Positions 7,160 to 32,000 of a stretch of DNA of 32,000 bases are shown here, piece by piece. The stretch is from Candidatus Saccharimonadota bacterium (lineage in GTDB: Bacteria > Patescibacteriota > Saccharimonadia > Saccharimonadales > UBA4665), in assembly GCA_016700375.1 (NCBI GenBank), contig CP065016.1, positions 1,200,001 through 1,232,000 on the forward strand, in the 5' to 3' direction. The stretch's first letter is position 1, and each line of letters begins with the position of its first letter. Made by a program: the position numbers and the translations under genes. A model generated the notes under the pieces. It worked only from the letters and a program-made list of their open reading frames with translations. It was not told the origin of the DNA and ran no database searches.

Positions 7160-7651
7160 ATGTCAGCAACTATAGATGAACAATTTGTCGAGTACGTCGT
7201 CAAATCACTCGTAGGTAAGCCAGAGGCAGTCAGCATAAAGCGCAGCGTAGACGAAAAGGGCGTACTACTCGAGCTCACGGTGGACGCAGAAGACCTTGGG
7301 CGGGTGATTGGTAAGCGTGGCGCAACCGCTCAGAGTATTCGCACGCTCTTGCGTGCGCTCGGCACGAAGCAAGAAGCCCGATACAACCTAAAAATTGTCG
7401 ACGTTGACCGTTTGGATGAAAATGGTAATCCGCTGCCTCGCCCAGAACGCGATGACCGCCCCGTCCGGGATGACTCACAGTCAGTTGCCAGCAGTGACAG
7501 CGCCAGCGACGATACAGCCCAGGCATCTTCCGCTGCAGTGGCGAGTGACGATGACGACGATGCCTTTGATGTGCCAGCCGAAAAGAAAGAAAGCGACACC
7601 GTTGCTCGAACTCGCGCAGAGTTAGCCGACCTCGACGACCTCGATATCTAG
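7160..7651 (+). CDS. KH-domain RNA-binding protein (YlqC/UPF0109-like) with long acidic tail
   Basis: KH GxxG motif in context (LGRVIGKRGATAQSIRTLL). It occupies the conserved position after rpsP. The C-terminal ~80 aa are Asp/Ser-rich. Confidence 0.75.
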   Translation: MSATIDEQFVEYVVKSLVGKPEAVSIKRSVDEKGVLLELTVDAEDLGRVIGKRGATAQSIRTLLRALGTKQEARYNLKIVDVDRLDENGNPLPRPERDDRPVRDDSQSVASSDSASDDTAQASSAAVASDDDDDAFDVPAEKKESDTVARTRAELADLDDLDI

Positions 7652-19945: not shown

Positions 19946-20428
19946 ATGTTTAGGCTATTCTCACGCACAACTGACACGCAAGGGCTATGTAGTTCTCGTC
20001 TCTTCAACAACGAGTCGTTTTACAAGTCTTTTACTAGCGACTTACGGTACGCGAAACAACGTGTCCATATTGAGAGTCCGTTCATCACAAAAAGGCGCAT
20101 TGATGAGTTGCTACCGGTCTTTGAGGGACTACGGCGCAGGGGCATAGCAGTTACAGTTAACACTCGATGCCCTGACGAGCATGACGGAGAATATGTCAGG
20201 CAGGCTTCCGACGGCATTCAGGCAATGCAGGAGCTGGGGGTAAAGGTGCTTTATACCGTAAAGCACCACCGCAAGCTAGCAGTGATTGATGATGTTCTGT
20301 GGGAGGGCAGCTTAAATATACTCTCACAAAATGATAGCTGCGAGATCATGAGGCGTATCGTATCGGCAATACTTACTGAGGAGATGCTACGATTTACAGG
20401 AGCTAATAAATACGTATCTACTTATTGA
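19946..20428 (+). CDS. Single-HKD phospholipase-D-family nuclease (Nuc-like)
   Basis: HKD motif HHRKLAVIDDVLWEGSLNILSQND (HxKx4Dx6GSxN), ~160 aa. A GAGGAG SD lies 7 nt before the ATG at 19946; an alternative ATG is at 19925. The 3' end overlaps the convergent HAD-like gene by 11 nt. Confidence 0.8.
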   Translation: MFRLFSRTTDTQGLCSSRLFNNESFYKSFTSDLRYAKQRVHIESPFITKRRIDELLPVFEGLRRRGIAVTVNTRCPDEHDGEYVRQASDGIQAMQELGVKVLYTVKHHRKLAVIDDVLWEGSLNILSQNDSCEIMRRIVSAILTEEMLRFTGANKYVSTY

Positions 20429-20825
20429 GAAAGACTTGAGCTAGCTTTTCGAGCATATCAGGGTCTTTATGGAGGTCAACCATGATGAAGTTTTGAACTG
20501 CCTCATGTTTCTCAAGTACATTGAGTTCGTTAGGCCAAAGATCGTCATCAAACCATAGAAAATCTTGCTCAAAGTCGATTGCATCGGTCTTGAGTTCATT
20601 CCACTCCGACGGCTTCACCTTGTCTAGCAAGATGACAGTTTCGGGATTGAGATGGGGAGCGAGTATTTCTTTTGCCCTGTTTTCACCTTTCCAGTTGTGA
20701 GTAGTCAGCCAATATGTTGAGTCGGGGTACTTCTCCAAAACAGCATGCAAAAACTCGTCGGCATGACGCGCCGCTTCTTTGTCATTTGCTAGGAGTACTC
20801 CGTCGATATCAAGATAAATGTTCAT
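20418..20825 (-). CDS. HAD-superfamily hydrolase-like protein (possible nucleotidase/phosphatase)
   Basis: Motif I at the N-terminus (IYLDIDGVLL), a candidate motif II Thr (WLTTH) and an acidic motif (LWFDDDLW). A GGGAGGA SD lies upstream, with a TAA|ATG junction to the upstream gene. Confidence 0.6.
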   Translation of the reverse strand: MNIYLDIDGVLLANDKEAARHADEFLHAVLEKYPDSTYWLTTHNWKGENRAKEILAPHLNPETVILLDKVKPSEWNELKTDAIDFEQDFLWFDDDLWPNELNVLEKHEAVQNFIMVDLHKDPDMLEKLAQVFLNK

Positions 20826-22469
20826 TTAATTTCCTCCCGTCACACTAGGCGGTACGCCTGTTTTGTACGAAACGTATAAAGCAATAATAGCAACTATAAG
20901 TGATAAAGCCGATACCGCAAGCGCCCATCGGCCTGTTTTTATGTCGGTTCCCGTTGCGCCGAGCTGTGATATGGTCGTGAGGATATCCCTATAATCACTA
21001 TCTAGCTTTGATAATCTCTTGAAAGTTTCATCATTGCGATCCATGACATCATTGAAGAAATCAATAGGCTTTTTCTCTTCGGGCTTCAACTTTGCAGTGA
21101 AGATCGGCGCAGGGGTCATTACGAAGTTAGCGCCCTCAAACCATCGTTTGTGCCGACGAAGATTGGCAACATCTTGTCGGATACTAGCAAGCGTGAGACT
21201 TGAATCGAGGACAATGCCACTTAAACTGTTTACGCTGCCCACCTTAAACTTTTTGTGCTGAAGTTGAGCGCCATCACGCAATTTTGCATATTGTGCTTCG
21301 AGAACTAAGAGTAATTGAGATATAGCTAGAAGTACAAGTGTCGGGCCGACGCGTTCTTCTGCAATGTATGAGACAGCGTGATTAGCGTCACCGCCAAAAC
21401 CCTTGAAGTTCTCAGTCGATTTAACTATCTTACCTCTATTAACGATAAGTCCCCATGTACGTTCCGGGTCTATAACTGACTCAGAGAGCCTACTAGCTTG
21501 AGCTAGCAACATGTCGGGAATCTCTGGCGCAGTTATCCTATAAAAATCTGAGCCGTCGATACCCAGCGCCCGAAGCGCATCATGAACATCATTGTCAGTT
21601 CTTTTCGTGCTTTTGCTGACCGGATTATATTTTTCCGTCATCATTACATCCATCGAGAGCTGTTTCTCGCCATGCATAGCGAAGTACCCAGGACAATACT
21701 TAGTCATCCAATCTCTAGCTAGACTATGGAGGTCATCTCGGGTCTTCTGAGTTGCTTTATATGTAGCGAATTGCCGATCTACGGGATGCAATTTGCTAAA
21801 CGCGCCCATTGTTTTTGAGCGTTCCATATACGGCTCATGGTCAGCATGCCAGACATCATCAAGCTTTTTAGAGTGCGCATCGTTGAAATTAACACGCGCG
21901 ACAACTGCGGTCAGGCCTGATCCCACTTGGATAGCCTTAAGTTGTATCCATTCAATGCCGTCAGGCAGCTTCGTGCGATGGGCATCAGGTACATAATATC
22001 CCTCTGTATTAACTATATCTGCCAATCGCCACCAAGACATACCGTTACGTGATCGTGCCTGCGCAAGACGTTCACTATTAGTTTCTCTGGTTGCCGTTCG
22101 GGTACGTTCGTTCCACTTGTTCTTCCTAATGTATTTCTCAAGTGTAGCGGCTTCGTTTGGTGTAAACAACTCCACGACAATGACGGAAGCTACAGTAACA
22201 TGCTCATCCTTGGGTATATGTACATTGTGATAATGGTCAACCTTATTCCACGATTTCAACCGGTCAAGTTCGTTAATCTGTATGAGATTATTTACCCCCT
22301 GCAAGGCAAGCGTGCGTATGGGCGCAGGAGTTACTTTCTTGTGCTTGATAAGCCACCATAATACTTTGTATGCGGTATCGTAGTGCCATCTCCAACCATG
22401 ACCAATCTCAGGCACTTCATCAAAAGCCTCTTTTACAAACGAATGTTCTTTGGGCTTTTTAGTAGCCAT
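20826..22469 (-). CDS. 547-aa protein of unknown function with C-terminal transmembrane anchor
   Basis: Long ORF in an operon context. I recognise no catalytic motif. A hydrophobic C-terminal segment (WALAVSALSLIVAIIALYVSY) and an internal hydrophobic helix (GPTLVLLAISQLLLVLEA) are present. Confidence 0.8.
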   Translation of the reverse strand: MATKKPKEHSFVKEAFDEVPEIGHGWRWHYDTAYKVLWWLIKHKKVTPAPIRTLALQGVNNLIQINELDRLKSWNKVDHYHNVHIPKDEHVTVASVIVVELFTPNEAATLEKYIRKNKWNERTRTATRETNSERLAQARSRNGMSWWRLADIVNTEGYYVPDAHRTKLPDGIEWIQLKAIQVGSGLTAVVARVNFNDAHSKKLDDVWHADHEPYMERSKTMGAFSKLHPVDRQFATYKATQKTRDDLHSLARDWMTKYCPGYFAMHGEKQLSMDVMMTEKYNPVSKSTKRTDNDVHDALRALGIDGSDFYRITAPEIPDMLLAQASRLSESVIDPERTWGLIVNRGKIVKSTENFKGFGGDANHAVSYIAEERVGPTLVLLAISQLLLVLEAQYAKLRDGAQLQHKKFKVGSVNSLSGIVLDSSLTLASIRQDVANLRRHKRWFEGANFVMTPAPIFTAKLKPEEKKPIDFFNDVMDRNDETFKRLSKLDSDYRDILTTISQLGATGTDIKTGRWALAVSALSLIVAIIALYVSYKTGVPPSVTGGN

Positions 22470-22471
22470 GC

Positions 22472-22789
22472 CTACTTTACAGTCTTACCGTCTCGGACAG
22501 CTTCGAGTAATTCTCGGTGACGAAGTTCATTCCGTTTGTTTTTTCGTGCGCCGCGCCGCCATAGCCGCCAAGGAATGAAAAGAATGCCAAACAGTACATA
22601 CATAATAAAGTACCAACACGCCACAAACATCCATGCACAAGCGATCAACATGAGGGCAATCGGCACGAGCAATAGCCACTTTATCCAGACGTTACCTGAA
22701 TTAGTTATTTTCCATATACGTTGAGCCGATCCCGAAAAAGAGAATGGCGCTGATACTACTATTTTTTCTGATGTTAACTTTTCACTCAT
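22472..22789 (-). CDS. 105-aa two-TM membrane peptide
   Basis: Two adjacent hydrophobic stretches (WIKWLLLVPIALMLIACAWMFVA and YFIMYVLFGILFIPW) are followed by a basic tail (RLWRRGARKNKRNELRHR). It shares an ATGA overlap with the upstream gene. Confidence 0.7.
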   Translation of the reverse strand: MSEKLTSEKIVVSAPFSFSGSAQRIWKITNSGNVWIKWLLLVPIALMLIACAWMFVACWYFIMYVLFGILFIPWRLWRRGARKNKRNELRHRELLEAVRDGKTVK

Positions 22790-24261
22790 AGCTTCCTCAA
22801 AACATTAAATATTTCAACCATCGCCAATGTATCCAGCTTGCAATATTCCAACAGATCAGCGAACAGCACCTCTTTATCTATTGAATCCTTACCATCAATC
22901 ACGCCTTGCATCCAAAGCCTCTGAGCGGATGCGCCCTCATGAATACCCAGTCCAGCGTAAGAGAGTGTTGGTACAAGAACGGGCAAAACTTTTTTGATAC
23001 TAGCACTACCGTAAAAGTCCTTATCCACGTACCAAAGTTTCGAGAATGGGAGCATGAGATCATTCATCCGATCATTAACATTGAGTAAGAAGTCTTTTAG
23101 TTCTGGTACTTCTTCGGCTAGAGTTTTATTGCAACTTTTCTCGAAGCCCATGTTCCATGCCAGAACCGTGCCCGTATCGCCAATATGGCTGCGTAGAGCC
23201 CCAGCGATATCTTTGCATGGGTTCGTGCCCTCACGGTGCAGGTACTCTTCGTGTCGTAGCTCAGAATCAGGAGAATCAAGTATGTGTAGTGAATACTGGA
23301 ATGGAACTTGTTGGTATGGGCGCATGCCCTCAAATGGAGGCACGATACCGGCGAGTGTTTCATAATCAAGGAAGTAGAGCGGGTATTCAAACGACCTTAG
23401 TAAGTCTTGGATTGGTTCATGGGTGATGAGCTGCTGATTAAGTTTTGCGGCAGTAGTTTGTTTATGCTGTTTTGGCGATAGCTTGAAGTCATCTGGGATA
23501 TCGGCAATTTTTTCAATACCGGCATCTTCAAGTGCTTTTACTTTTGCCGCATTGAGGCCGCAGAGATAATAAATACTGTCATTGGGCGGATTCGTGAGGC
23601 TTCTGTAGATTGATAGCCAATCCCCAAACGAACTACCGGCCGCAAGAACCGGCGATAGGTCGGGTATATCTGGTGATTGCATGACTTCAAGTGCTTCCTG
23701 AGCGTGCAGTTTTGTGGCTTCACTCAATGCATTCACTTCTGAGGTTACGTCAGTGATCGTACAGAACTCCTCAGGGTTGATGTTACCGTGACGTGTGTAT
23801 TCATTGTTGACGTGGACCACATTGATGTTCCGCACGGTAAAGCCAGATTCACGAAGTACATGAGCCTGAAATGCAAGGTCGGTTGCATGTTCAGGTTTCG
23901 CTTTAGTGCTGGATTTAATCTCGTATAGATCGAATGTCTTGTCGCCAACTACATGCACGACATCACATATACAGGTTAATTGCCCAGCAATAAAGCGAGC
24001 TTGGTAAATAGTCTTTGCGCCGCCAAGTAGTGCTTCCATGGTTTGTTCGGGCAATGCTAAGTAGCTGGCGTAGTCACTAAAGCCTAGTCGCACGCCATCA
24101 TCAAATAATTTTTCTGCGTAGCCCTCGAATAAGTTACCGGCGTCAAAGGTCGCCTGGGTATTGTCGTCAATATGGGGCAGCTTATCTTTGTCGTGCTTTT
24201 TGAGCCACAACCAAGCCGGATGTGCGAGGTAGAGCATATAATCCGACTTAGATAGCAGCAT
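22786..24261 (-). CDS. DUF2779-like protein: PD-(D/E)xK-type N-terminal domain plus DEDDy-like exonuclease-type C-terminal domain
   Basis: N-terminus LSKSDYMLYLAHPAWLWL and ICDVV...FDLYEIKSSTK (D...ExK). The C-terminal half has YPLYFLDYET, VLAWNMGFEKS and YCKLDTLAM (a DEDD-type residue pattern). The family assignment is from memory of the DUF2779 FLDFET hallmark. Confidence 0.7.
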   Translation of the reverse strand: MLLSKSDYMLYLAHPAWLWLKKHDKDKLPHIDDNTQATFDAGNLFEGYAEKLFDDGVRLGFSDYASYLALPEQTMEALLGGAKTIYQARFIAGQLTCICDVVHVVGDKTFDLYEIKSSTKAKPEHATDLAFQAHVLRESGFTVRNINVVHVNNEYTRHGNINPEEFCTITDVTSEVNALSEATKLHAQEALEVMQSPDIPDLSPVLAAGSSFGDWLSIYRSLTNPPNDSIYYLCGLNAAKVKALEDAGIEKIADIPDDFKLSPKQHKQTTAAKLNQQLITHEPIQDLLRSFEYPLYFLDYETLAGIVPPFEGMRPYQQVPFQYSLHILDSPDSELRHEEYLHREGTNPCKDIAGALRSHIGDTGTVLAWNMGFEKSCNKTLAEEVPELKDFLLNVNDRMNDLMLPFSKLWYVDKDFYGSASIKKVLPVLVPTLSYAGLGIHEGASAQRLWMQGVIDGKDSIDKEVLFADLLEYCKLDTLAMVEIFNVLRKL

Positions 24262-24264
24262 AGT

Positions 24265-24702
24265 CTATTTGCCTCTTAACCCTACGAGCGTATTGATTAG
24301 CCTTGGAAACTCACCCGATTCAAATGCACCTACTAATGCGCCATCTGAAAAGCGATCATTGCGAATTACTGCCGTTAGTAACTTAAGAGTTGTAGGTACG
24401 TCTAGGGCATCATACTTCGATTCATCACTATTCTTATACCAGTCGCGGCCCTCATCCCATTCTGACCACTTAAAATTAACGATAAACTCATTACCGTAAA
24501 AGAATGCGACGAACTCGCTTATAAGAGGATCGGATACCCAGTATGGCATTTGTATAACGCCATTTTCGTCAGTCTCACCACCCTGAGTCTTGCCCCAACT
24601 ACCCTCATGGGACTGGACGCGATTGTTGATATCAACAAATTGCTCCCAAGTCTCATCACTGAGTTCCGAAAATGCTTTTACCGATTCTTCTGTTGCGTCC
24701 AT
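24265..24702 (-). CDS. 145-aa strongly acidic protein of unknown function
   Basis: An ORF with a GAGGAGGA SD embedded in the upstream gene end and a TAA|ATG junction. Asp/Glu clearly outnumber Lys/Arg. It is Trp-rich (SEWDEGRDWY). Confidence 0.7.
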   Translation of the reverse strand: MDATEESVKAFSELSDETWEQFVDINNRVQSHEGSWGKTQGGETDENGVIQMPYWVSDPLISEFVAFFYGNEFIVNFKWSEWDEGRDWYKNSDESKYDALDVPTTLKLLTAVIRNDRFSDGALVGAFESGEFPRLINTLVGLRGK

Positions 24703-26886
24703 TTATTCATCCTCCTCATCAGTCGTCTTTTTGGCAGTGAGTTCGGCTTTGATATCATCATGTGCGAGATTGAACGTACTTCCAAGTGCAGCAATAAGCC
24801 GCCGTTTGCTGTTTGTGTTTGTTCCGGTGTCGATGAAGTACCCAGTGTCTAATATCTCGGCGCTGTTATAGAACGCGCTGGCATCCTGTCGGATAAAGCG
24901 CGAAAGATATTCATCCTCAGTTACCATCTCGATAAAGTCGGGATTTCGGCTGTAAATAGCTTCTGCGATAGCGTCCAGCGCCTCGGCCCAAGTTGTCACC
25001 GAACTCTCTTCGCCGAATACTTCGACCGAACGGATACCTGCGCCTTTCAGATCCATTTCATCGAGCAAGTATATCGTGGTGTCTTCTTCTACCGGCTGGA
25101 AAGCGGTTACAGGGAGTGGCCATACTTTTTTGAGACTGGTAACCCACCAATTCTGACGCTCCTTGAGAGTATCTTCGTTCCAGGTATCGTGTTTCGCAAT
25201 CCATTCATTGAGTGGTAATTTGCTATCAGCGAAGCCGACTTTTCGCACTTCTCCCGTTTTCTTATCCTTGACCTCAAGATTCATTTTGTCGAGATATGGA
25301 CGGTTAGAATACTCAGAGTTATAGCCAGTTAGCGTGAGGTTGGCTAGTGTATGGAGATAATCACGGTGAATGCGCTCAAAGTCATCACCGAGCATAGCCT
25401 GCCAGTCTTTGCTTGCCAGCGTCTGGGGCATGACATGCTCAATTGAGAGTTTTAGCTTGCCATCGGAAATCTGATGCAGCGTATGGACGGCCTCTTTTGA
25501 TGATTCCTCGGCAGCAGTGAGAACATAGACGAGGAATGAGTTTCGCTGGTAGTACGCCTCGCGCGAGCGAATCGCGTTTTCATACTCTGCGTCGTCTGGC
25601 ATGCGCGTTTGACCGATACGGTTAAGCAGAATATATCGAAGTACCTCTACGTAATCTGCGTCGGGGCTTGTCTTCTGGTAGCTTAATACATCTTTGTGAA
25701 GCGATGCCAAGAAGCGGTCTACGCTCGTAGTATCTATGCCGCTCACGATACGACGCGAGAAGTACGTTTCGATGAGCTTAAAGACATCCTCAAGCTGTAA
25801 ATCGGTAAGTTCACCAGCCGCATGATGGCGCAACACATTCATGGCGAACGGAATATACAAATCAATCTGCAAGTAGCGCATCTTGAAGATGGTTTCACTA
25901 ATGCCTTTGTACTTTGGCTCAAACTCGCTCGTGTCAATCAGCTTCAGGAGCTTGTAAAATCCAAGTGACTCGACGATATCGCTATAGAATACGTCAATCT
26001 TGTCTTCTTCTTGTGCTTCACCGACATGCTTATCAAACTGCTTCTTGAACTCCGGGTAGACGGCATCCAATCGTACAATAGCTTGGCGCTTCGAGATTAT
26101 GTAGCTACGGAAGAAATCAGTAATATGGTCTTTGTTAGAGTCCACCAGCGATTCTTCGATAATTGACCAGTACTTTTCATAAACTTGGTTGCGGAGCTGA
26201 TCATTGCTAAGCATGAGTGCAAAGTTACGAATTTTGTCACCATCTGTCAAAGGCTTGCCGGTCGAGTTAATGCTCTCGAAGACGCGCTGAGGGTTGTCGT
26301 CGTTGCCGTTGAGAGTGATGGAAATAACCTCAAACATACGCAAGCCGTCAATGTACTTATCAAGGCCGGTACGCGCCTGGAAGTACTTGCGGAATGTCGA
26401 GTAGACCTGATAGATATTGCTCACGCGTTCGCGAGGTTCGAGGCGCGATTCTTCGCCATCTTTATCAAAAATATGTTGCAAAATCTGGTTGTCAGTTGTG
26501 ACGGTACGGAGCTTGACTTTGTTCTTGTCAATATTCGCGTTGAAGAGATAACGATCGCGGATAAGTTCTGGTGTCGTCTCTGGGTTTTCAATCAGCGATG
26601 GATCTTTTTTGACGAGGTGATAAATTGCCGTTACCATCAAAAGCGACGTCGTGACGCGCTGTTGACCGTCAATAATAGCTACTGAATAGCTGCTGGCGGT
26701 GTCTTCGACAAGCACAACCGTACCGAAATAATGGTTTCTCCGCTTAGCAACACTCTCTTCGAGATCAATCAGAAACTCATTCGCATTGTTTGTTTGCCAT
26801 GCATAGGGTCGTTGGAAGTTCGGTATCTCATAGTATGTCTCTGAGGCGTTGAGAATCTTCTGGATATTAGTCTGTGCCGAAATCAT
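24703..26886 (-). CDS. GmrSD-family type IV restriction endonuclease (DUF262 + DUF1524)
   Basis: DUF262 motifs YEIPNFQRPYAWQ and IIDGQQRVTTSLL. DUF1524 His-Me finger motifs IEHVMPQT and HTLANLTLTGYNSEYSN. The ATG at 26886 sits 9-10 nt after an AAGGAGG and 1 nt after the upstream stop. Confidence 0.85.
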   Translation of the reverse strand: MISAQTNIQKILNASETYYEIPNFQRPYAWQTNNANEFLIDLEESVAKRRNHYFGTVVLVEDTASSYSVAIIDGQQRVTTSLLMVTAIYHLVKKDPSLIENPETTPELIRDRYLFNANIDKNKVKLRTVTTDNQILQHIFDKDGEESRLEPRERVSNIYQVYSTFRKYFQARTGLDKYIDGLRMFEVISITLNGNDDNPQRVFESINSTGKPLTDGDKIRNFALMLSNDQLRNQVYEKYWSIIEESLVDSNKDHITDFFRSYIISKRQAIVRLDAVYPEFKKQFDKHVGEAQEEDKIDVFYSDIVESLGFYKLLKLIDTSEFEPKYKGISETIFKMRYLQIDLYIPFAMNVLRHHAAGELTDLQLEDVFKLIETYFSRRIVSGIDTTSVDRFLASLHKDVLSYQKTSPDADYVEVLRYILLNRIGQTRMPDDAEYENAIRSREAYYQRNSFLVYVLTAAEESSKEAVHTLHQISDGKLKLSIEHVMPQTLASKDWQAMLGDDFERIHRDYLHTLANLTLTGYNSEYSNRPYLDKMNLEVKDKKTGEVRKVGFADSKLPLNEWIAKHDTWNEDTLKERQNWWVTSLKKVWPLPVTAFQPVEEDTTIYLLDEMDLKGAGIRSVEVFGEESSVTTWAEALDAIAEAIYSRNPDFIEMVTEDEYLSRFIRQDASAFYNSAEILDTGYFIDTGTNTNSKRRLIAALGSTFNLAHDDIKAELTAKKTTDEEDE

Positions 26887-26887
26887 A

Positions 26888-28051
26888 TTATTCATCCTCC
26901 TTGTTCGGCACAATCGCCTGTAAATCTTTGTCATAGTGAAAATCTACGATATCGCCGTTCTGTAGCATGTTGACTGCCTGCTCAATGGCAAGCAGTGGCA
27001 CTGAGTACCACTCACTCGGCGTATAGTCACGTCCGTCTTTGTCGATAATCGTCAGGTCTACTTTTGCATCGGCAAATATTCGATGAATAAAATGTTCTAC
27101 TTTTTGAGGATTATAGTCTCCAGTCAGTACATAGCTATCGACGACTTCTACGCCAGACATCAAGTATGTTGGGTCTTTTTCTGCATCTTTAATACGATCA
27201 GCCACAGTGGTAGTTGCGAATCCAATCTTGTGTAGATTCTTGATATTTTGCACTTGTGGACTATCGCTCAGTGAACGTAAAACGTAAATGTAGCCCACAA
27301 TAGTATCAGTGTCACTTAGCTCTTCGTATACGGATTCATCTGCTATCGGTACAATCTCATATCCATCTTCGTATAGACGCATAGAAAGTGATCGCCGGTA
27401 CATATTTGATTCAGTGCCATTTTCGTATATGATTCTAAACCGTTCTTTGTTCCGGTCGTATACCCATTTCTTCTCACCGGCATCAATGATGCGAAGCATC
27501 TGGCCAGCATGCACATAGTACGCCCCCATATGTAGTTGATTGACTGACACGTAACGACGGAGCTTTAGCTTGCCCTCTGCGAGAAGTTGCTGTTGTTCGA
27601 CAAATCCAGGTTTATACTCCTGAAAATCTGCTGCGTGTTTGCGGTCGGCTCGTTCTTTAACGGGTCGCGGCTTGGACAGTACTTTACTGACTTTTAGGAT
27701 GTCGTCGCCATCGCTACTAAATAATCCATATGTATCATCAGAAAATAGTTCGTCTATTGATTCTGGCGCTTCAAGTTCTTCGAGCAGTCCAAGACTATCG
27801 ACGGGCTTGAGCGCTTCAACCTTGTCTTTATTTGTTTTTATCGAGTTCAAACGAGCCGCTAATGATGCCTCGCTAATATCGGTTGCATTGATATCGGGCA
27901 AGCGATCATTGATTTCTACAAACTCGGTGATCTGTTTGAATGATGAGGTCAGTCGATCATCGGCAGTAATAGGCTTGGCTTTTTCCTGCGCAGTAAATAG
28001 ACCCTCGTTATCTGTATCGAATAGATTTATTAACTCATCAGAAAAGTCCAT
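26888..28051 (-). CDS. T5orf172 / GIY-YIG-superfamily domain protein
   Basis: The C-terminal domain VGYIYVLRSL...NLHKIGFATTTVADRIKD fits the T5orf172 (GIY-YIG-like) pattern. The N-terminal ~230 aa are uncharacterised. Its ATG overlaps the helicase stop (TAATG). Confidence 0.7.
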   Translation of the reverse strand: MDFSDELINLFDTDNEGLFTAQEKAKPITADDRLTSSFKQITEFVEINDRLPDINATDISEASLAARLNSIKTNKDKVEALKPVDSLGLLEELEAPESIDELFSDDTYGLFSSDGDDILKVSKVLSKPRPVKERADRKHAADFQEYKPGFVEQQQLLAEGKLKLRRYVSVNQLHMGAYYVHAGQMLRIIDAGEKKWVYDRNKERFRIIYENGTESNMYRRSLSMRLYEDGYEIVPIADESVYEELSDTDTIVGYIYVLRSLSDSPQVQNIKNLHKIGFATTTVADRIKDAEKDPTYLMSGVEVVDSYVLTGDYNPQKVEHFIHRIFADAKVDLTIIDKDGRDYTPSEWYSVPLLAIEQAVNMLQNGDIVDFHYDKDLQAIVPNKEDE

Positions 28052-30021
28052 TATGCCTGCTTTTCTTTCTCTCTAAGCCATGCTGCTTTACGAGCAGTCA
28101 GGTATGCTTGCGCCTGAGCAAGTAACTTCTCATTTTTATCAGGGCTATTGATTGCTGGGTACTTGCCGTCATGAGCCACGACGAATGCTTTGATCTGTGG
28201 CACGAGGGCAAGGGCATCTTCGTCTGACATGTCGATACGTGAGCCTGCTATCGTGTCTTGGATGACGCGGAATACATCAGCGCCAACGCGCTTCGAGATG
28301 ACTTCAAATGCGTGCTGGAATGGGTTTATAGAATCAATCAGGTCGATACTGAGTTCGTCAAGGTTCACAAAACTATTGGCGAGCGTGATAAACTTTTTGT
28401 CGCCATCTTCGGTAATCTTAGCAGTCTTAAATGCAAGATTACTTGCTAGGTACTGTCGGGTTACTTCGACTTCTTCCTCGTTAAGTCCAGGTAGACGTTC
28501 ACGAATGATTTTAGACTGTAAGTGCTTCATGTAGTCACCAGTATGGCCATTTGCCGCTGCACGCTGAATCTGTGTATCTTGCAGTACGGCTGCCGTTAGG
28601 TCTTCGAGTTCGGTGGCAAGAATATGTTTAACCTTTTCTGATGGTGGTTTTTTGAGGCCTTTAACAAATACTTCACCAGCCTTTGCTTTTTGGTCGGGTG
28701 ATGTACGTGGCGTGAATGTAAAGTTAGGCGCTAGTACTTGTTCCATCAAGAGAGAGGCGGTGATCGCCTTGAGCATGTTATTGACTGAAACTTGTATGTC
28801 GTCACTTGTGCCATTTGGCTGCACGATTAGATTTGTAAACTGCGCGTGAGACTTGTTGTAGCTATCACGAGTACAGCGGCCAATGATCTGCACGATCTCC
28901 GTCAGGCTTGCCCTGTAGCCTATAGTTAGCGCCTGTTCACAGTAGGGCCAGTCAAAGCCCTCCTTTGCCATACCGAGTGCGATAATGATGTCTACGCCAG
29001 CAATATCGTTTTTAGCAACGTCACTGAGGTACTGGGTGATCTTAGCCCTATGCAACGGGTCATCCTCTACGAGATTGGCGACTTTTACACGACGACCATC
29101 TGGCGTTTCTATGATTTCTACACCGGTCTCGCTGTCTTGTTCTATCCATGTCCCAATAAGGTCAAAAATGCGCGTAACTTCTTCGTGCTTACCAACTTGA
29201 GTCGATTCTTTTGAGTTGACGTTTGGAATGTGAATAATTGTCTTTTTATTCGTATCTAGCACAGCATCTAGTGCGCCGTCATCGAGATAACTACCAGTGT
29301 AGAAGTGATAGCCAATACCAAGCGTCTTGAGGTATGTATACCCATTGAGCTGTTCGTAATAGGTATAGGTTACTTTATCGAACTCTGATTCGTCTTCTGG
29401 CGTAAGGATTGGAATGGCATCGCCACGGAAGTATGAGCCGGTCATAGCAATAATCTGAATGTTAGTGCCGTTCATGACACGGTGCAGCAGTTCACCCAAT
29501 CGGCTGTTTTCGCTAACAGACACATGGTGGAACTCGTCGATAGCCAGAACGGTATCATTAAACAACTCCATAGGGAGTTCTTCGGCCTCAAATGCAAAAC
29601 GTAGGGTTGCATGAGTACAGACAAGTATCTTGTCATCGGACTTCATGAAGCTTGTAAATGATTTCACTTTTGATTTGTCGTCGCCAGTACCGAGGCAGAG
29701 ATTGTTGCGATCTTCTACTTCCCAGTCTGCGAAAAAGCCTGCTTCTGTCAGATTTGTGTTACCGAATGATGAACCGATAGATTTTTCTGGTACGGCAACG
29801 ATGACTTTTTTCTTGCCTTGGTTGATAAGTTTATCGAGGCCGACATACATAAGGGCACGAGACTTACCCGATGCTGGTGGCGCTTTGATGAGTAGATGAT
29901 TGCTGTTGCGCTTATCAAATGCGCGGCGCTGCATTTCGCGCATTCCCATTTCATCAGTCTTGGTACTTTCGCCAGTCTGTTCATAGGTTACATCAATAAT
30001 GTTCAGGGTTTCGTCGTTCAT
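28051..30021 (-). CDS. SF2 DExH-box helicase/translocase (ResIII-like)
   Basis: Walker A KAPPASGKS, motif II AIDEFHH, motif III MTGS and motif VI QIIGRCTR. The ~220-aa C-terminal region has no recognisable nuclease motif. It shares an ATGA overlap with the MTase stop and has an AAGGAG SD. Confidence 0.85.
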   Translation of the reverse strand: MNDETLNIIDVTYEQTGESTKTDEMGMREMQRRAFDKRNSNHLLIKAPPASGKSRALMYVGLDKLINQGKKKVIVAVPEKSIGSSFGNTNLTEAGFFADWEVEDRNNLCLGTGDDKSKVKSFTSFMKSDDKILVCTHATLRFAFEAEELPMELFNDTVLAIDEFHHVSVSENSRLGELLHRVMNGTNIQIIAMTGSYFRGDAIPILTPEDESEFDKVTYTYYEQLNGYTYLKTLGIGYHFYTGSYLDDGALDAVLDTNKKTIIHIPNVNSKESTQVGKHEEVTRIFDLIGTWIEQDSETGVEIIETPDGRRVKVANLVEDDPLHRAKITQYLSDVAKNDIAGVDIIIALGMAKEGFDWPYCEQALTIGYRASLTEIVQIIGRCTRDSYNKSHAQFTNLIVQPNGTSDDIQVSVNNMLKAITASLLMEQVLAPNFTFTPRTSPDQKAKAGEVFVKGLKKPPSEKVKHILATELEDLTAAVLQDTQIQRAAANGHTGDYMKHLQSKIIRERLPGLNEEEVEVTRQYLASNLAFKTAKITEDGDKKFITLANSFVNLDELSIDLIDSINPFQHAFEVISKRVGADVFRVIQDTIAGSRIDMSDEDALALVPQIKAFVVAHDGKYPAINSPDKNEKLLAQAQAYLTARKAAWLREKEKQA

Positions 30022-32000
30022 TTTGTTTTCTCCTTTTCAGTAGCGGTCATTTGTTCAAATAGTGCGAATAGATCGGCGAGTCGTTCTTCGTCATTACCGT
30101 ATGGTCTTGGTCGATATAGTTTATCTACCGCAAGATCAAGTTCATGATGAGCCTGTCGCAAATCTTCCGGCATCTTGATTGGATCGTACATTTCGGCAAG
30201 AGTTTTTTCGCTATGGTTTTCACGAACAAGAAGCACATTGCGTGCAGCAGAAGTGAGCATCTGCTTTTGTGGCTCAGTTAGTGGCGGTACAGGATAGTTA
30301 GCATAAACAATTGCAGAAGAGTATCGTAGCCGATCTTCAAGTTTCCCAGCAACGGAACGAATCCATGCCATGTGCATGCGAGAAGATATGATTCCAAATA
30401 GCCAAATAGGAGCATCATATACTATATTCGCAGCATTTGAGGCTACAGTGTTGCCGTCTAAGAACCCAATTGGTATGTATTCACGACGTTCCGACGAAAC
30501 ACTAGGTATGATAATTGCTTGACCATTTTTATGTGCTCGCTGACGGAATCGATGTGGGTATTTAGCATACTCAACCGTTGAGGGTGTATCTTTGCGACTA
30601 GCCCTAAACTCTGCGACATTCGCAATCATTTCGGCAATAGGAGGAATCGTTTTTGCTTCATCAGCATCCGCATCGCTAATCCATAAACAGTACCTAGTTT
30701 TGCCATTGATGTAATCGCCCGAACCAGTGAACCCTTTAATGAACTTGGCAGCATCAGGATATTCAGAAATTATCTTCTCTCTCTTTTCTTCATCGAATAT
30801 CAAGAATCCACCATCTGTTGGCTTACTCCCCATTACGCAGTCAGGTAGTCCACTGATTGACTTGGCCCGACGAGTAAAGAATATCGAGTCTGAACCGGCA
30901 GTAAGATACGCGCTAATACTAGGTACTTCTGTACGAACAAGATTGTCGTAGATAAACTTCTTAGCCTTACTTGTTGAACGTAAATTGATAACGACAACTG
31001 TTACACCGGCTACATTGCGAGCGCCGTTTGTCCATTTGAATGAAGTATAGGCAAAGCCTATCTCTACATTCTTGTCGAAGACGTATGGCCACAATAAGGC
31101 CACTTGTTCGCCCTGGCAAATAGAGTTTGTTGATACGAATGCGAGCTGTGCTTTAGAATCCTGTATATAGTCTGCACCTATCTTGAACCATGCAGCAATG
31201 AGGTCGAGATTCTTGTAGTTCTTAAAACTCTTGAATACGTGCGTCATGTCTCGCTTTTGGTCTGCATCTTGCAAGCTAGAGCCAAGATATGGAGGGTTGC
31301 CGATTAAGTAAATCTCATCCCAATACTTTTGCTTTAGGTCTTCGTCAGAGATTAAAGCTTCTTGTTCGTTTTCGACTTCGATATCGAGGAGGTATTGCTG
31401 ATCTGGCTGAGTATTATCTATGACGTGTTCGATATTTGGACAAACTTCTCGCCAGTCAATTTGCATAGAGTTACCCTGTACGATTTTTGCGTTATCCTTG
31501 AGCGGGATCAGGATAATTTCTTTACCAAAGTGCTGCTCAAACTCGATGTTCATCTGGTGTTTAGCAAGGTATAGCGAAAGAATGGCAATCTCATGTGCGA
31601 AATCGTCAATCTCTATTCCATAAAAGTTATCGAGCTTGATCTTTGATTCAAGCTTGCCAGATAGCATCGCACGCTGGTAGTCGCTGCTAAACAGACGGTC
31701 GATAATACCATGCTCGATTTTGCGCAGTTCTTTGTAGGCAATAATCAGGAAATTACCAGAACCACAGGCAGGGTCGAACACCTTGATTTTGCTAATCCGC
31801 GACCATATGTTATTGAGCTTATTTGGATTGTCGTAATACTTGTCGAACTCTTCGCGTAGCTCATCGAGGAATAGAGGTTCGATAGTCCGCATGATGTTTG
31901 GCACGCTGGTATAGTGCATGCCGTTAGTCGCGCGGTGCTCTTCGTCAACGATACTTTGGAACATAGAACCGAAAATATCTGGGTTAATCGTTGACCAGTC
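30018..32000 (-). CDS. N6-adenine DNA methyltransferase with fused target-recognition domain, MmeI/type IIL-like (N-terminus outside window)
   Basis: The frame is open to the window edge (DWSTINPDIFGSMFQSIVDEEHRATNGMHYTS). SAM motif I VFDPACGSGNFL and motif IV IGNPPYLG are present. FYGIEIDDFAHEIAILSLYLAKHQMN and the C-terminal SSERREYIPIGF...RMHMAWIR...RLRYSSAIVYANYPVP resemble the MmeI-family MTase/TRD, from memory. Confidence 0.85.
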   Translation of the reverse strand, partial: DWSTINPDIFGSMFQSIVDEEHRATNGMHYTSVPNIMRTIEPLFLDELREEFDKYYDNPNKLNNIWSRISKIKVFDPACGSGNFLIIAYKELRKIEHGIIDRLFSSDYQRAMLSGKLESKIKLDNFYGIEIDDFAHEIAILSLYLAKHQMNIEFEQHFGKEIILIPLKDNAKIVQGNSMQIDWREVCPNIEHVIDNTQPDQQYLLDIEVENEQEALISDEDLKQKYWDEIYLIGNPPYLGSSLQDADQKRDMTHVFKSFKNYKNLDLIAAWFKIGADYIQDSKAQLAFVSTNSICQGEQVALLWPYVFDKNVEIGFAYTSFKWTNGARNVAGVTVVVINLRSTSKAKKFIYDNLVRTEVPSISAYLTAGSDSIFFTRRAKSISGLPDCVMGSKPTDGGFLIFDEEKREKIISEYPDAAKFIKGFTGSGDYINGKTRYCLWISDADADEAKTIPPIAEMIANVAEFRASRKDTPSTVEYAKYPHRFRQRAHKNGQAIIIPSVSSERREYIPIGFLDGNTVASNAANIVYDAPIWLFGIISSRMHMAWIRSVAGKLEDRLRYSSAIVYANYPVPPLTEPQKQMLTSAARNVLLVRENHSEKTLAEMYDPIKMPEDLRQAHHELDLAVDKLYRPRPYGNDEERLADLFALFEQMTATEKEKTK

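Follow-up and report, generated by a model that had tools for sequence, protein, structure and literature searches.

The yeeA(dnmA)-yeeB-yeeC module of a Saccharibacteria genome: a candidate ATP-dependent, methylase-guided restriction system

Morgan et al. (2009) divided the homologues of the restriction enzyme MmeI into two sets: members of the first carry a PD-ExK motif and have no constant neighbours, and members of the second have no such motif and lie 'invariably' beside a DEAD helicase (YeeB-like) and a GIY-YIG-motif protein (YeeC-like) (PMC2731913). On their own, neither YeeA nor a Moraxella homologue showed endonuclease activity, and the MmeI-like subunit was proposed to provide specificity and modification, its N-domain contacting a separate helicase and endonuclease in a type-I-like manner (PMC2731913). 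Nye et al. (2020) found that YeeA, or DnmA, makes N6-methyladenine (m6A) at GACGAG (PMC7261158). A 2023 study in mBio confirmed the synteny, called the Bacillus subtilis locus a relic of a restriction-modification (RM) system and reported that B. subtilis YeeB and YeeC are without C-terminal stretches (PMC9973331). A Vibrio crassostreae strain became sensitive again to one phage group when yeeAB was inactivated (bioRxiv 10.1101/2021.05.05.442762). Here we analyse three genes of this kind at the end of a stretch of 32,000 nt of a Saccharibacteria contig (positions 1,200,001-1,232,000 of CP065016.1, hereafter the window), whose end cuts the MmeI-like gene.

The trio almost certainly represents, in a Saccharibacteria host, the yeeA(dnmA)-yeeB-yeeC module, a widespread unit that moves horizontally. 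As in B. subtilis, an MmeI-like methyltransferase (MTase) with a target recognition domain (TRD) and without PD-ExK, a DEAD/DExH helicase and a T5orf172/GIY-YIG protein follow each other in the same order on the same strand. The proteins are similar in size to the homologues surveyed below, and helicase homologues from Bacillus plasmids and genomes are 53-58% identical to that of the window. Unlike the B. subtilis cluster, the window trio belongs to a host of the candidate phyla radiation (CPR) and lies within a nine-gene defence-like operon adjoining type IV secretion genes. The features that characterise the second set of Morgan et al. recur here: likeness to MmeI beyond the first ~100 residues, no PD-ExK (in the orthologues), a helicase gene next and a gene for a GIY-YIG-type protein next. 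This assignment to YeeABC was made from domains, gene order and the published description. The first-pass annotation of this DNA had proposed a type-I-like or ISP-like enzyme split into three polypeptides. The architecture is borne out and restriction by the trio is what we infer from it; the idea is not new, because Morgan et al. described the cluster and the same model in 2009.

The features of the trio are as follows.
30018..32000, minus strand: 3' two-thirds of the yeeA/dnmA-like gene, an MmeI-family N6-adenine MTase with TRD and C-terminal domain
30948..31844, minus strand: MTase catalytic domain, residues 53-351 of the partial protein (Pfam MmeI_Mtase, PF20473, E=1.9e-100)
30279..30890, minus strand: TRD, residues 371-574 of the partial protein (Pfam MmeI_TRD, PF20466, E=5.7e-75)
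30018..30021, minus strand: ATGA stop/start overlap of the yeeA-like and yeeB-like genes, read in the sequence
28051..30021, minus strand: yeeB-like superfamily 2 (SF2) DExH helicase, 656 aa (Pfam DEAD and ResIII)
29860..29883, minus strand: helicase motif I (Walker A), APPASGKS, residues 47-54, invariant in the helicase alignment
29524..29538, minus strand: helicase motif II, DEFHH, residues 162-166, invariant in the helicase alignment
28054..28803, minus strand: all-helical C-terminal region of the helicase, residues ~407-656, no known domain, predicted at low confidence by AlphaFold2 (AF2)
28049..28053, minus strand: TAATG stop/start overlap of the yeeB-like and yeeC-like genes, read in the sequence
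26888..28051, minus strand: yeeC-like protein, 387 aa (Pfam, AF2 model and 76-sequence alignment)
26966..27295, minus strand: T5orf172/MUG113 domain (GIY-YIG superfamily), residues 253-362, the candidate nuclease

Both overlaps claimed by the first-pass annotation were thus found in the three minus-strand genes, and the MmeI_TRD match on the same chain agrees with its statement that the MTase has its own TRD. The open reading frame (ORF) of the MmeI-like protein stops at 30018 and its frame is open through base 32000; the start 'ATG 31964' in the ORF list is merely the first ATG within an ORF that leaves the window. Further Pfam matches were MmeI_C (2.5e-22) on the partial MTase, DEAD (8.8e-09) and ResIII (4.2e-06) on the helicase, and MUG113 (2.7e-10) and T5orf172 (2.7e-09) on the C-terminal third of the third protein. 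On the latter, PF10544 scored 37.9 bits (cut-off 20) and PF13455 41.1 bits (cut-off 22.3); we take both families to be members of the GIY-YIG superfamily (Pfam clan). None of the three proteins matched a specific family of NCBIfam.

The part of the MTase that lies beyond the window, whose importance the first-pass annotation had stressed, was supplied by related contigs. The same helicase, identical in every residue, recurs on at least 23 public contigs, eight of which (L001-L008) were retrieved. Their source names are Candidatus Saccharibacteria or Saccharimonadales, and they show ~95-98% DNA identity to positions 19.8-32.0 kb of the window (~96% overall). In these contigs the full-length upstream protein has 939-941 aa and carries MmeI_N, MmeI_hel, MmeI_Mtase, MmeI_TRD and MmeI_C. 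Over 661 positions (660 residues and the stop codon), the window MTase agrees with the C-terminal part of the L006 protein at 657; it corresponds to residues ~282-941 of a protein of ~941 aa, leaving ~281 residues beyond the window; base 32000 equals L006 position 8022 and the L006 gene starts at 7179. The full-length L006 protein matched MmeI (PDB 5HR4) with E=7.7e-168 in an alignment that begins at residue 87, and the MTase motifs FDPACGSGNF and NPPY are kept.

The nuclease motif is not. A search for D-X9-E-X-K in the full-length orthologues of L001-L006 found none: the region that reads VD70LFWPGILLIE80MK82 in MmeI (sequence checked against 5HR4) is NDVLQRGVVYFKHV in the related proteins, so that the positions of D70, E80 and K82 show D...K-H-V in the six orthologues. 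Alignment of 60 full-length helicase-linked MTases to MmeI extended this observation. The position of E80 is occupied by Lys or Arg in 53/60, that of K82 by Val, Thr, Ala, Glu or another residue and by Lys in 0/60, and that of D70 by Glu in 45/60 and Asp in 5/60; the catalytic E-X-K is absent from every one. Matches of the pattern D..[ED].K in a few homologues were dropped, as their positions do not align with the catalytic residues of MmeI. As a control, five plasmid MmeI-type proteins that match MmeI across the whole N-terminus all keep D-X9-10-E-X-K, with no YeeB or YeeC homologue encoded within 6 kb of any of the five. In these alignments, then, loss of the motif is strictly linked to presence of the partners. 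A complete MmeI-type endonuclease, which the first-pass annotation had named as the case that would overturn its model, gives way to an MmeI_N-like domain in which E-X-K is replaced.

These results bear directly on whether the gene encodes a stand-alone type IIL (MmeI-type) RM enzyme, the helicase and T5orf172 genes being unrelated neighbours. Pfam MmeI_N is present, and PADLOC v2 labels the MTase, and only the MTase, as type IIG (model PDLC03598, E=3.8e-287), missing the helicase and the third protein. However, PDLC03598 also matches true MmeI-type proteins and cannot separate the two groups. E-X-K is missing from all helicase-linked homologues including L001-L006, linkage to the partners is invariant and the genes are translationally coupled, and YeeA-type proteins are without endonuclease activity alone (PMC2731913). 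The stand-alone reading is contradicted, and we leave it next to no probability. Since the PADLOC type IIG model matches both kinds of protein alike and there is no model for the third protein, such trios are likely mislabelled as single-protein type IIG enzymes.

We then turn to the distribution of the module. A tblastn search of plasmids with the helicase gave 265 records from Bacillota, Actinomycetota and Pseudomonadota with identity up to ~58%. The annotated order on plasmids was always 'DNA methyltransferase / type IIL RM enzyme MmeI', 'DEAD/DEAH box helicase', 'GIY-YIG nuclease family protein', and in a 7.7-kb Pediococcus plasmid the trio are the only annotated genes. Among species-representative genomes, at least 590 helicase matches were confirmed, and the best 80 loci, from many phyla, were surveyed. 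A same-strand MmeI-like gene lies upstream in 64/64 loci with enough upstream sequence and a T5orf172 gene downstream in 71/71 loci with enough downstream sequence; the whole trio, on one strand and in one order, was found in 60/60 loci with both flanks. MmeI-like proteins of these loci have 874-967 aa and YeeC-like proteins mostly 380-420 aa. Conservation across genomes, which the first-pass annotation had regarded as a test of its proposal, thus points to one conserved module.

Pairwise identities were compared over 56 loci, in correlations that include shared phylogeny and do not prove contact. Helicase identity followed that of the YeeC-like protein (r=0.82) and of the MTase N-domain (r=0.83), and that of the TRD only weakly (r=0.29). 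By these measures, the three genes move together, and it is the specificity domain that is exchanged. A TRD swap is seen between near-identical loci: L003 and the window share 37-60% identity in 40-column blocks over residues ~361-600, in or just after the TRD, against 85% in the block before and at least 95% in nearly all others. In L001, L002 and L005 only the middle of the third protein differs from the window (residues ~107-269, 27245-27733, linker and beta-rich domain), its N- and C-terminal parts being almost identical; this exchange is independent of the L003 swap. Between the window and L001, L002, L005 and L007, the helicase gene shows 22-29 nucleotide differences and 0 amino-acid differences, which indicates purifying selection.

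The junction of the MTase and helicase genes tolerates cargo. Inserts of 0.5-5.7 kb were found between them in ~20/64 loci (such as L012, L020, L027, L031, L036, L041, L042, L048, L061, L074, L076, L077, L081, L084, L088 and L093). As judged from N-terminal sequences without profile check, the inserted genes are PIN-like, Fic/DOC-like, RhuM-like, AlbA_2-like, GxxExxY-like and others. Separately, two loci with helicases 77-78% identical to that of the window (L015 and L016) come from metagenome-assembled genomes labelled Woesearchaeota archaeon and Thermodesulfobacteriota; they reflect either recent horizontal transfer or mis-binned Saccharibacteria contigs.

The yeeC-like protein carries the T5orf172 domain, which stands as the only nuclease candidate of the trio, as the first-pass annotation had it. 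The AF2 model (mean predicted local distance difference test score, pLDDT, 74) comprises N-terminal helices, a disordered acidic linker, a beta-rich middle and a C-terminal beta-beta-alpha-beta-alpha arrangement; the order of these modelled elements is compatible with a GIY-YIG core fold. We aligned 76 homologues from many phyla, and 36 sequences for the C-terminal domain. Y256, K275, G277, R286, E319, E347 and W348 are invariant in the 76, I276 is kept in 95% and H323 in 99% of them (H323 being invariant in the 36-sequence alignment), and G253-x-x-Y256 is invariant or nearly so. Foldseek with the whole model against the PDB returned weak matches to small beta-barrels (eIF5A, EF-P) on the middle domain only. 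Among viral models, its modest matches were T5orf172 and Bro proteins and a few labelled GIY-YIG, led by a 107-residue protein (template modelling score, TM-score, 0.79 normalised to the target, E=6e-6). The N-terminal and middle regions matched nothing in Pfam even at E<=10, and the protein had no match in PADLOC.

The T5orf172 domain has been placed in the GIY-YIG superfamily, and Gp88 (Odn) of phage ICP1, a T5orf172 protein that keeps the catalytic Arg and Glu, has been called an origin-directed nuclease (PMC8263062). Like the yeeC-like protein with its candidate Arg and Glu, Gp88 combines a T5orf172 domain and retained Arg and Glu with departures from the canonical motif. Unlike it, Gp88 is phage-encoded and stand-alone, is targeted by a RepA-like DNA-binding domain and has no MTase or helicase partner.

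The helicase carries motif II in the DExH form (DEFHH) and a QIIGRxTRD motif, and is 51-58% identical to homologues in Bacillota, Actinomycetota and Pseudomonadota plasmids. The first-pass annotation saw no nuclease motif in it, and this holds as far as it can be tested, since only ~25 residues precede the first helicase motif and the C-terminal region of about 257 aa, predicted to be all-helical, matched nothing in Pfam even at E<=10. Pfam likewise detected no PD-ExK domain in the protein. PADLOC gave weak PbeA and Cas3 matches and nothing more, the sequence profile only marginal RIG-I-like matches in the PDB, and Foldseek with the AF2 model (pLDDT 62) placed HsdR among the best matches. One further relation emerged within the trio: helicase residues 602-656 (28054-28218) resemble residues 33-79 of the third protein (27815-27955; hhalign probability 77%, E=2e-5). 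The common helical module of ~47 residues, with the pattern F..I..F....G..P.......E..LA..L, is covered by no Pfam family. It is possibly a docking element common to the helicase C-terminus and the YeeC N-terminus.

The alignments show a module with intact m6A-MTase and ATPase motifs and with invariant Arg and Glu as catalytic candidates in the T5orf172 domain. The most likely reading, to which we lean by a modest degree, is an ATP-dependent, methylase-guided restriction system. YeeA would methylate one strand of an asymmetric site on host DNA and would recognise unmethylated sites on incoming DNA, its degenerate N-domain serving as a docking platform and not as a nuclease. It would recruit or activate the YeeB motor, and ATP-driven translocation would be followed by DNA cutting by YeeC. 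With a single strand methylated, self-protection after replication would require cleavage to depend on a convergent pair of unmodified sites; such dependence is established logic for type III and type ISP enzymes and would be expected of the trio too. The wider proposition falls a little short of even chances in our estimate: that YeeABC is a real, very widespread and unclassified class of ATP-dependent RM systems, combining dead-nuclease docking, an SF2 motor that lacks a solved structural relative, a nuclease of the GIY-YIG/T5orf172 type, methylation of one strand and cleavage that depends on collision. If it is right, the helical module of the helicase C-terminus and the YeeC N-terminus would be the docking element.

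Several observations weigh against restriction by cleavage. In B. subtilis, transformation was affected neither by deletion of dnmA nor by the cluster (PMC7261158), the cluster gave no protection against three phages, and the DnmA motif is neither avoided nor depleted in phage genomes (PMC9973331). Our literature search found no biochemical reconstitution, YeeC cleavage or YeeB translocation. In the T5orf172 domain, 'KIG' (K275-I-G277) replaces 'YIG', placing Lys at the second Tyr of GIY-YIG. The domain profile had only chance-level matches and no relative among PDB sequences, hhalign against the I-TevI catalytic domain was negative with an unverified I-TevI sequence, and the models give weak structural support for a GIY-YIG fold. 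The likeness of the helicase to HsdR is generic to SF2 only, because the model is of low confidence. Finally, the window gene is without its N-terminus, and its motif loss is what we infer from orthologues ~96% identical in DNA.

Part of this evidence would suit a methylation-guided system that does not cut, akin to bacteriophage exclusion (BREX): YeeA would mark self, YeeB and YeeC would block replication of unmodified DNA or remodel it, and T5orf172 would bind DNA. The Lys in place of the canonical second Tyr, the GIY-YIG fold without structural confirmation and the failure of phages to avoid the DnmA motif all speak for it. So do descriptions of T5orf172 as a 'DNA-binding domain' in viral protein database entries and as predicted DNA-binding in print (PMC9973331), and weak PglX and DrmMI profile matches to the MTase domain. 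Against this stand the Arg and Glu candidates, invariant in the 76 homologues, the description of one T5orf172 protein as an origin-directed nuclease (PMC8263062), the naming of homologues as GIY-YIG nucleases by the NCBI annotation pipeline and the lack of a PglZ, BrxC, DrmA or DrmB partner. We give a non-cutting system a lower but appreciable probability. Actual membership of BREX or of DISARM (defence island system associated with restriction-modification) was rejected, no PglZ/BrxC or DrmA/DrmB/DrmC partner profiles being found anywhere in the operon.

The genetic results themselves conflict, the module being inactive in B. subtilis and protective in a Vibrio strain. An orphan epigenetic MTase accompanied by two relic genes, the conclusion reached for B. 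subtilis DnmA, would account for the absence of restriction or phage defence there and for the effects on gene expression (PMC9973331, PMC7261158). But at least 23 contigs of this lineage keep the three ORFs intact, with only synonymous differences in the helicase, the trio is complete in every two-flanked locus across phyla, TRD swapping is typical of active specificity diversification, and the Vibrio knock-out has a phenotype. The selection data make a relic unlikely in this lineage, and overall we rate the orphan reading as improbable.

The trio sits in a distinct part of the window. Positions 1-18.7 kb hold housekeeping genes (Ddl, LeuRS, RNase III, TrmD, DHODH, PGI, Asd, aspartate kinase and homoserine dehydrogenase) at a guanine and cytosine (GC) content of ~0.50-0.54, and the drop to ~0.43-0.47 from ~18.7 kb onward suggests an acquired island. 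A scan of the window, including the island border, found no tRNA. The opposite side of the island, which lies upstream of the MTase gene, carries type IV secretion genes (TrbC, TrbL, PrgI, VirB4-like and CHAP) in the related contigs. Megablast of the region found nothing in Escherichia coli genomes and one 116-bp match only in plasmids. The other genes around the trio are these.
24703-26886 (or to 26934), minus strand: GmrSD-family gene (GmrSD_N and GmrSD_C; PADLOC Orf5 and HEC-06 profiles)
20418-24702, minus strand: five abutting or overlapping genes, DUF6508 of 145 aa, DUF2779 of 491 aa (weakly Cas4-like) and ORFs of 105, 547 and 135 aa
19925-20428, plus strand: small phospholipase D (PLD)-like gene, PLDc_2 below the Pfam cut-off, converging on the operon end

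The GmrSD gene follows directly after the T5orf172 gene. Its longest ORF, from 26934, overlaps the latter by 47 nt, and an ATG at 26886 behind GGAGG gives a 727-aa form, as called in the related contigs. Type IV, modification-dependent restriction enzymes are among the members of the GmrSD family. Pfam, NCBIfam and PADLOC gave no significant match for the ORFs of 105, 547 and 135 aa, the 135-aa ORF showing a sub-threshold match to HAD_SAK_2 (E=0.0082). The five downstream genes co-occur with the trio only in close Saccharibacteria relatives and may constitute an uncharacterised defence module, or several. The PLD-like gene has a serine recombinase gene beside it in L004 and L008.

In L001-L008 as in the window, the nine packed minus-strand genes (the trio, GmrSD, DUF6508, DUF2779 and the three further ORFs) adjoin or overlap one another on the same strand, as would the genes of a single system. 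Among the 80 trio loci, however, a GmrSD homologue occurs once, a DUF2779 homologue once and the others never. A single nine-gene system is highly improbable and was rejected for the family as a whole; because they are almost never linked to the trio elsewhere, the six downstream genes are best seen as separate cargo.

The locus is not a discovery in itself, the trio and the mechanistic idea having been in the literature since 2009. What is added here is the linkage of motif loss to the partners, with controls, the co-divergence of the three genes with free shuffling of the TRD, and a possible docking module. The class is present in at least 590 species-representative genomes, in most bacterial phyla and on many plasmids, and, as the Saccharibacteria copy shows, its circulation extends to CPR bacteria and their reduced genomes.

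How, then, does the trio compare with known RM types? MmeI (type IIL/IIG, 5HR4) shares with the YeeA-like protein the series of N, hel, MTase, TRD and C domains and the NPPY and FxGxG motifs. Unlike it, MmeI carries D70-X9-E80-X-K82 and cuts alone without ATP; the YeeA-like protein has Lys at the position of E80 and Val at that of K82, and its helicase and T5orf172 partners are always present. The absence of constant partner genes, a trait of type IIL, holds for 5/5 controls and for none of the 60 trios.

Type ISP enzymes (LlaGI, LlaBIII) unite the same predicted activities, namely nuclease, SF2 motor, m6A MTase and TRD, and they recognise asymmetric sites and methylate one strand. They differ in being single polypeptides with an Mrr/PD-ExK nuclease, whereas the trio has three polypeptides and a GIY-YIG-type candidate. 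ISP structures gave no sequence match for the MTase at E<=1e-3, nor for the helicase profile at E<=1.

Type I systems (EcoR124I HsdR/HsdM/HsdS) resemble the trio in having separate motor and MTase subunits. In these the nuclease is fused to the motor HsdR, whereas the candidate nuclease of the trio is not in the motor subunit, and the trio has no HsdS because its TRD is fused to the MTase. HsdS and HsdR profiles matched no gene of the operon, the sole type I profile match being a weak one of MTase_I (E=1.2e-05) on the MmeI-like catalytic core. Type I loci often carry inserted defence, toxin-antitoxin or Fic genes, and the inserts at the MTase/helicase junction, together with the predicted helical module common to the helicase and the third protein, fit a type-I-like system.

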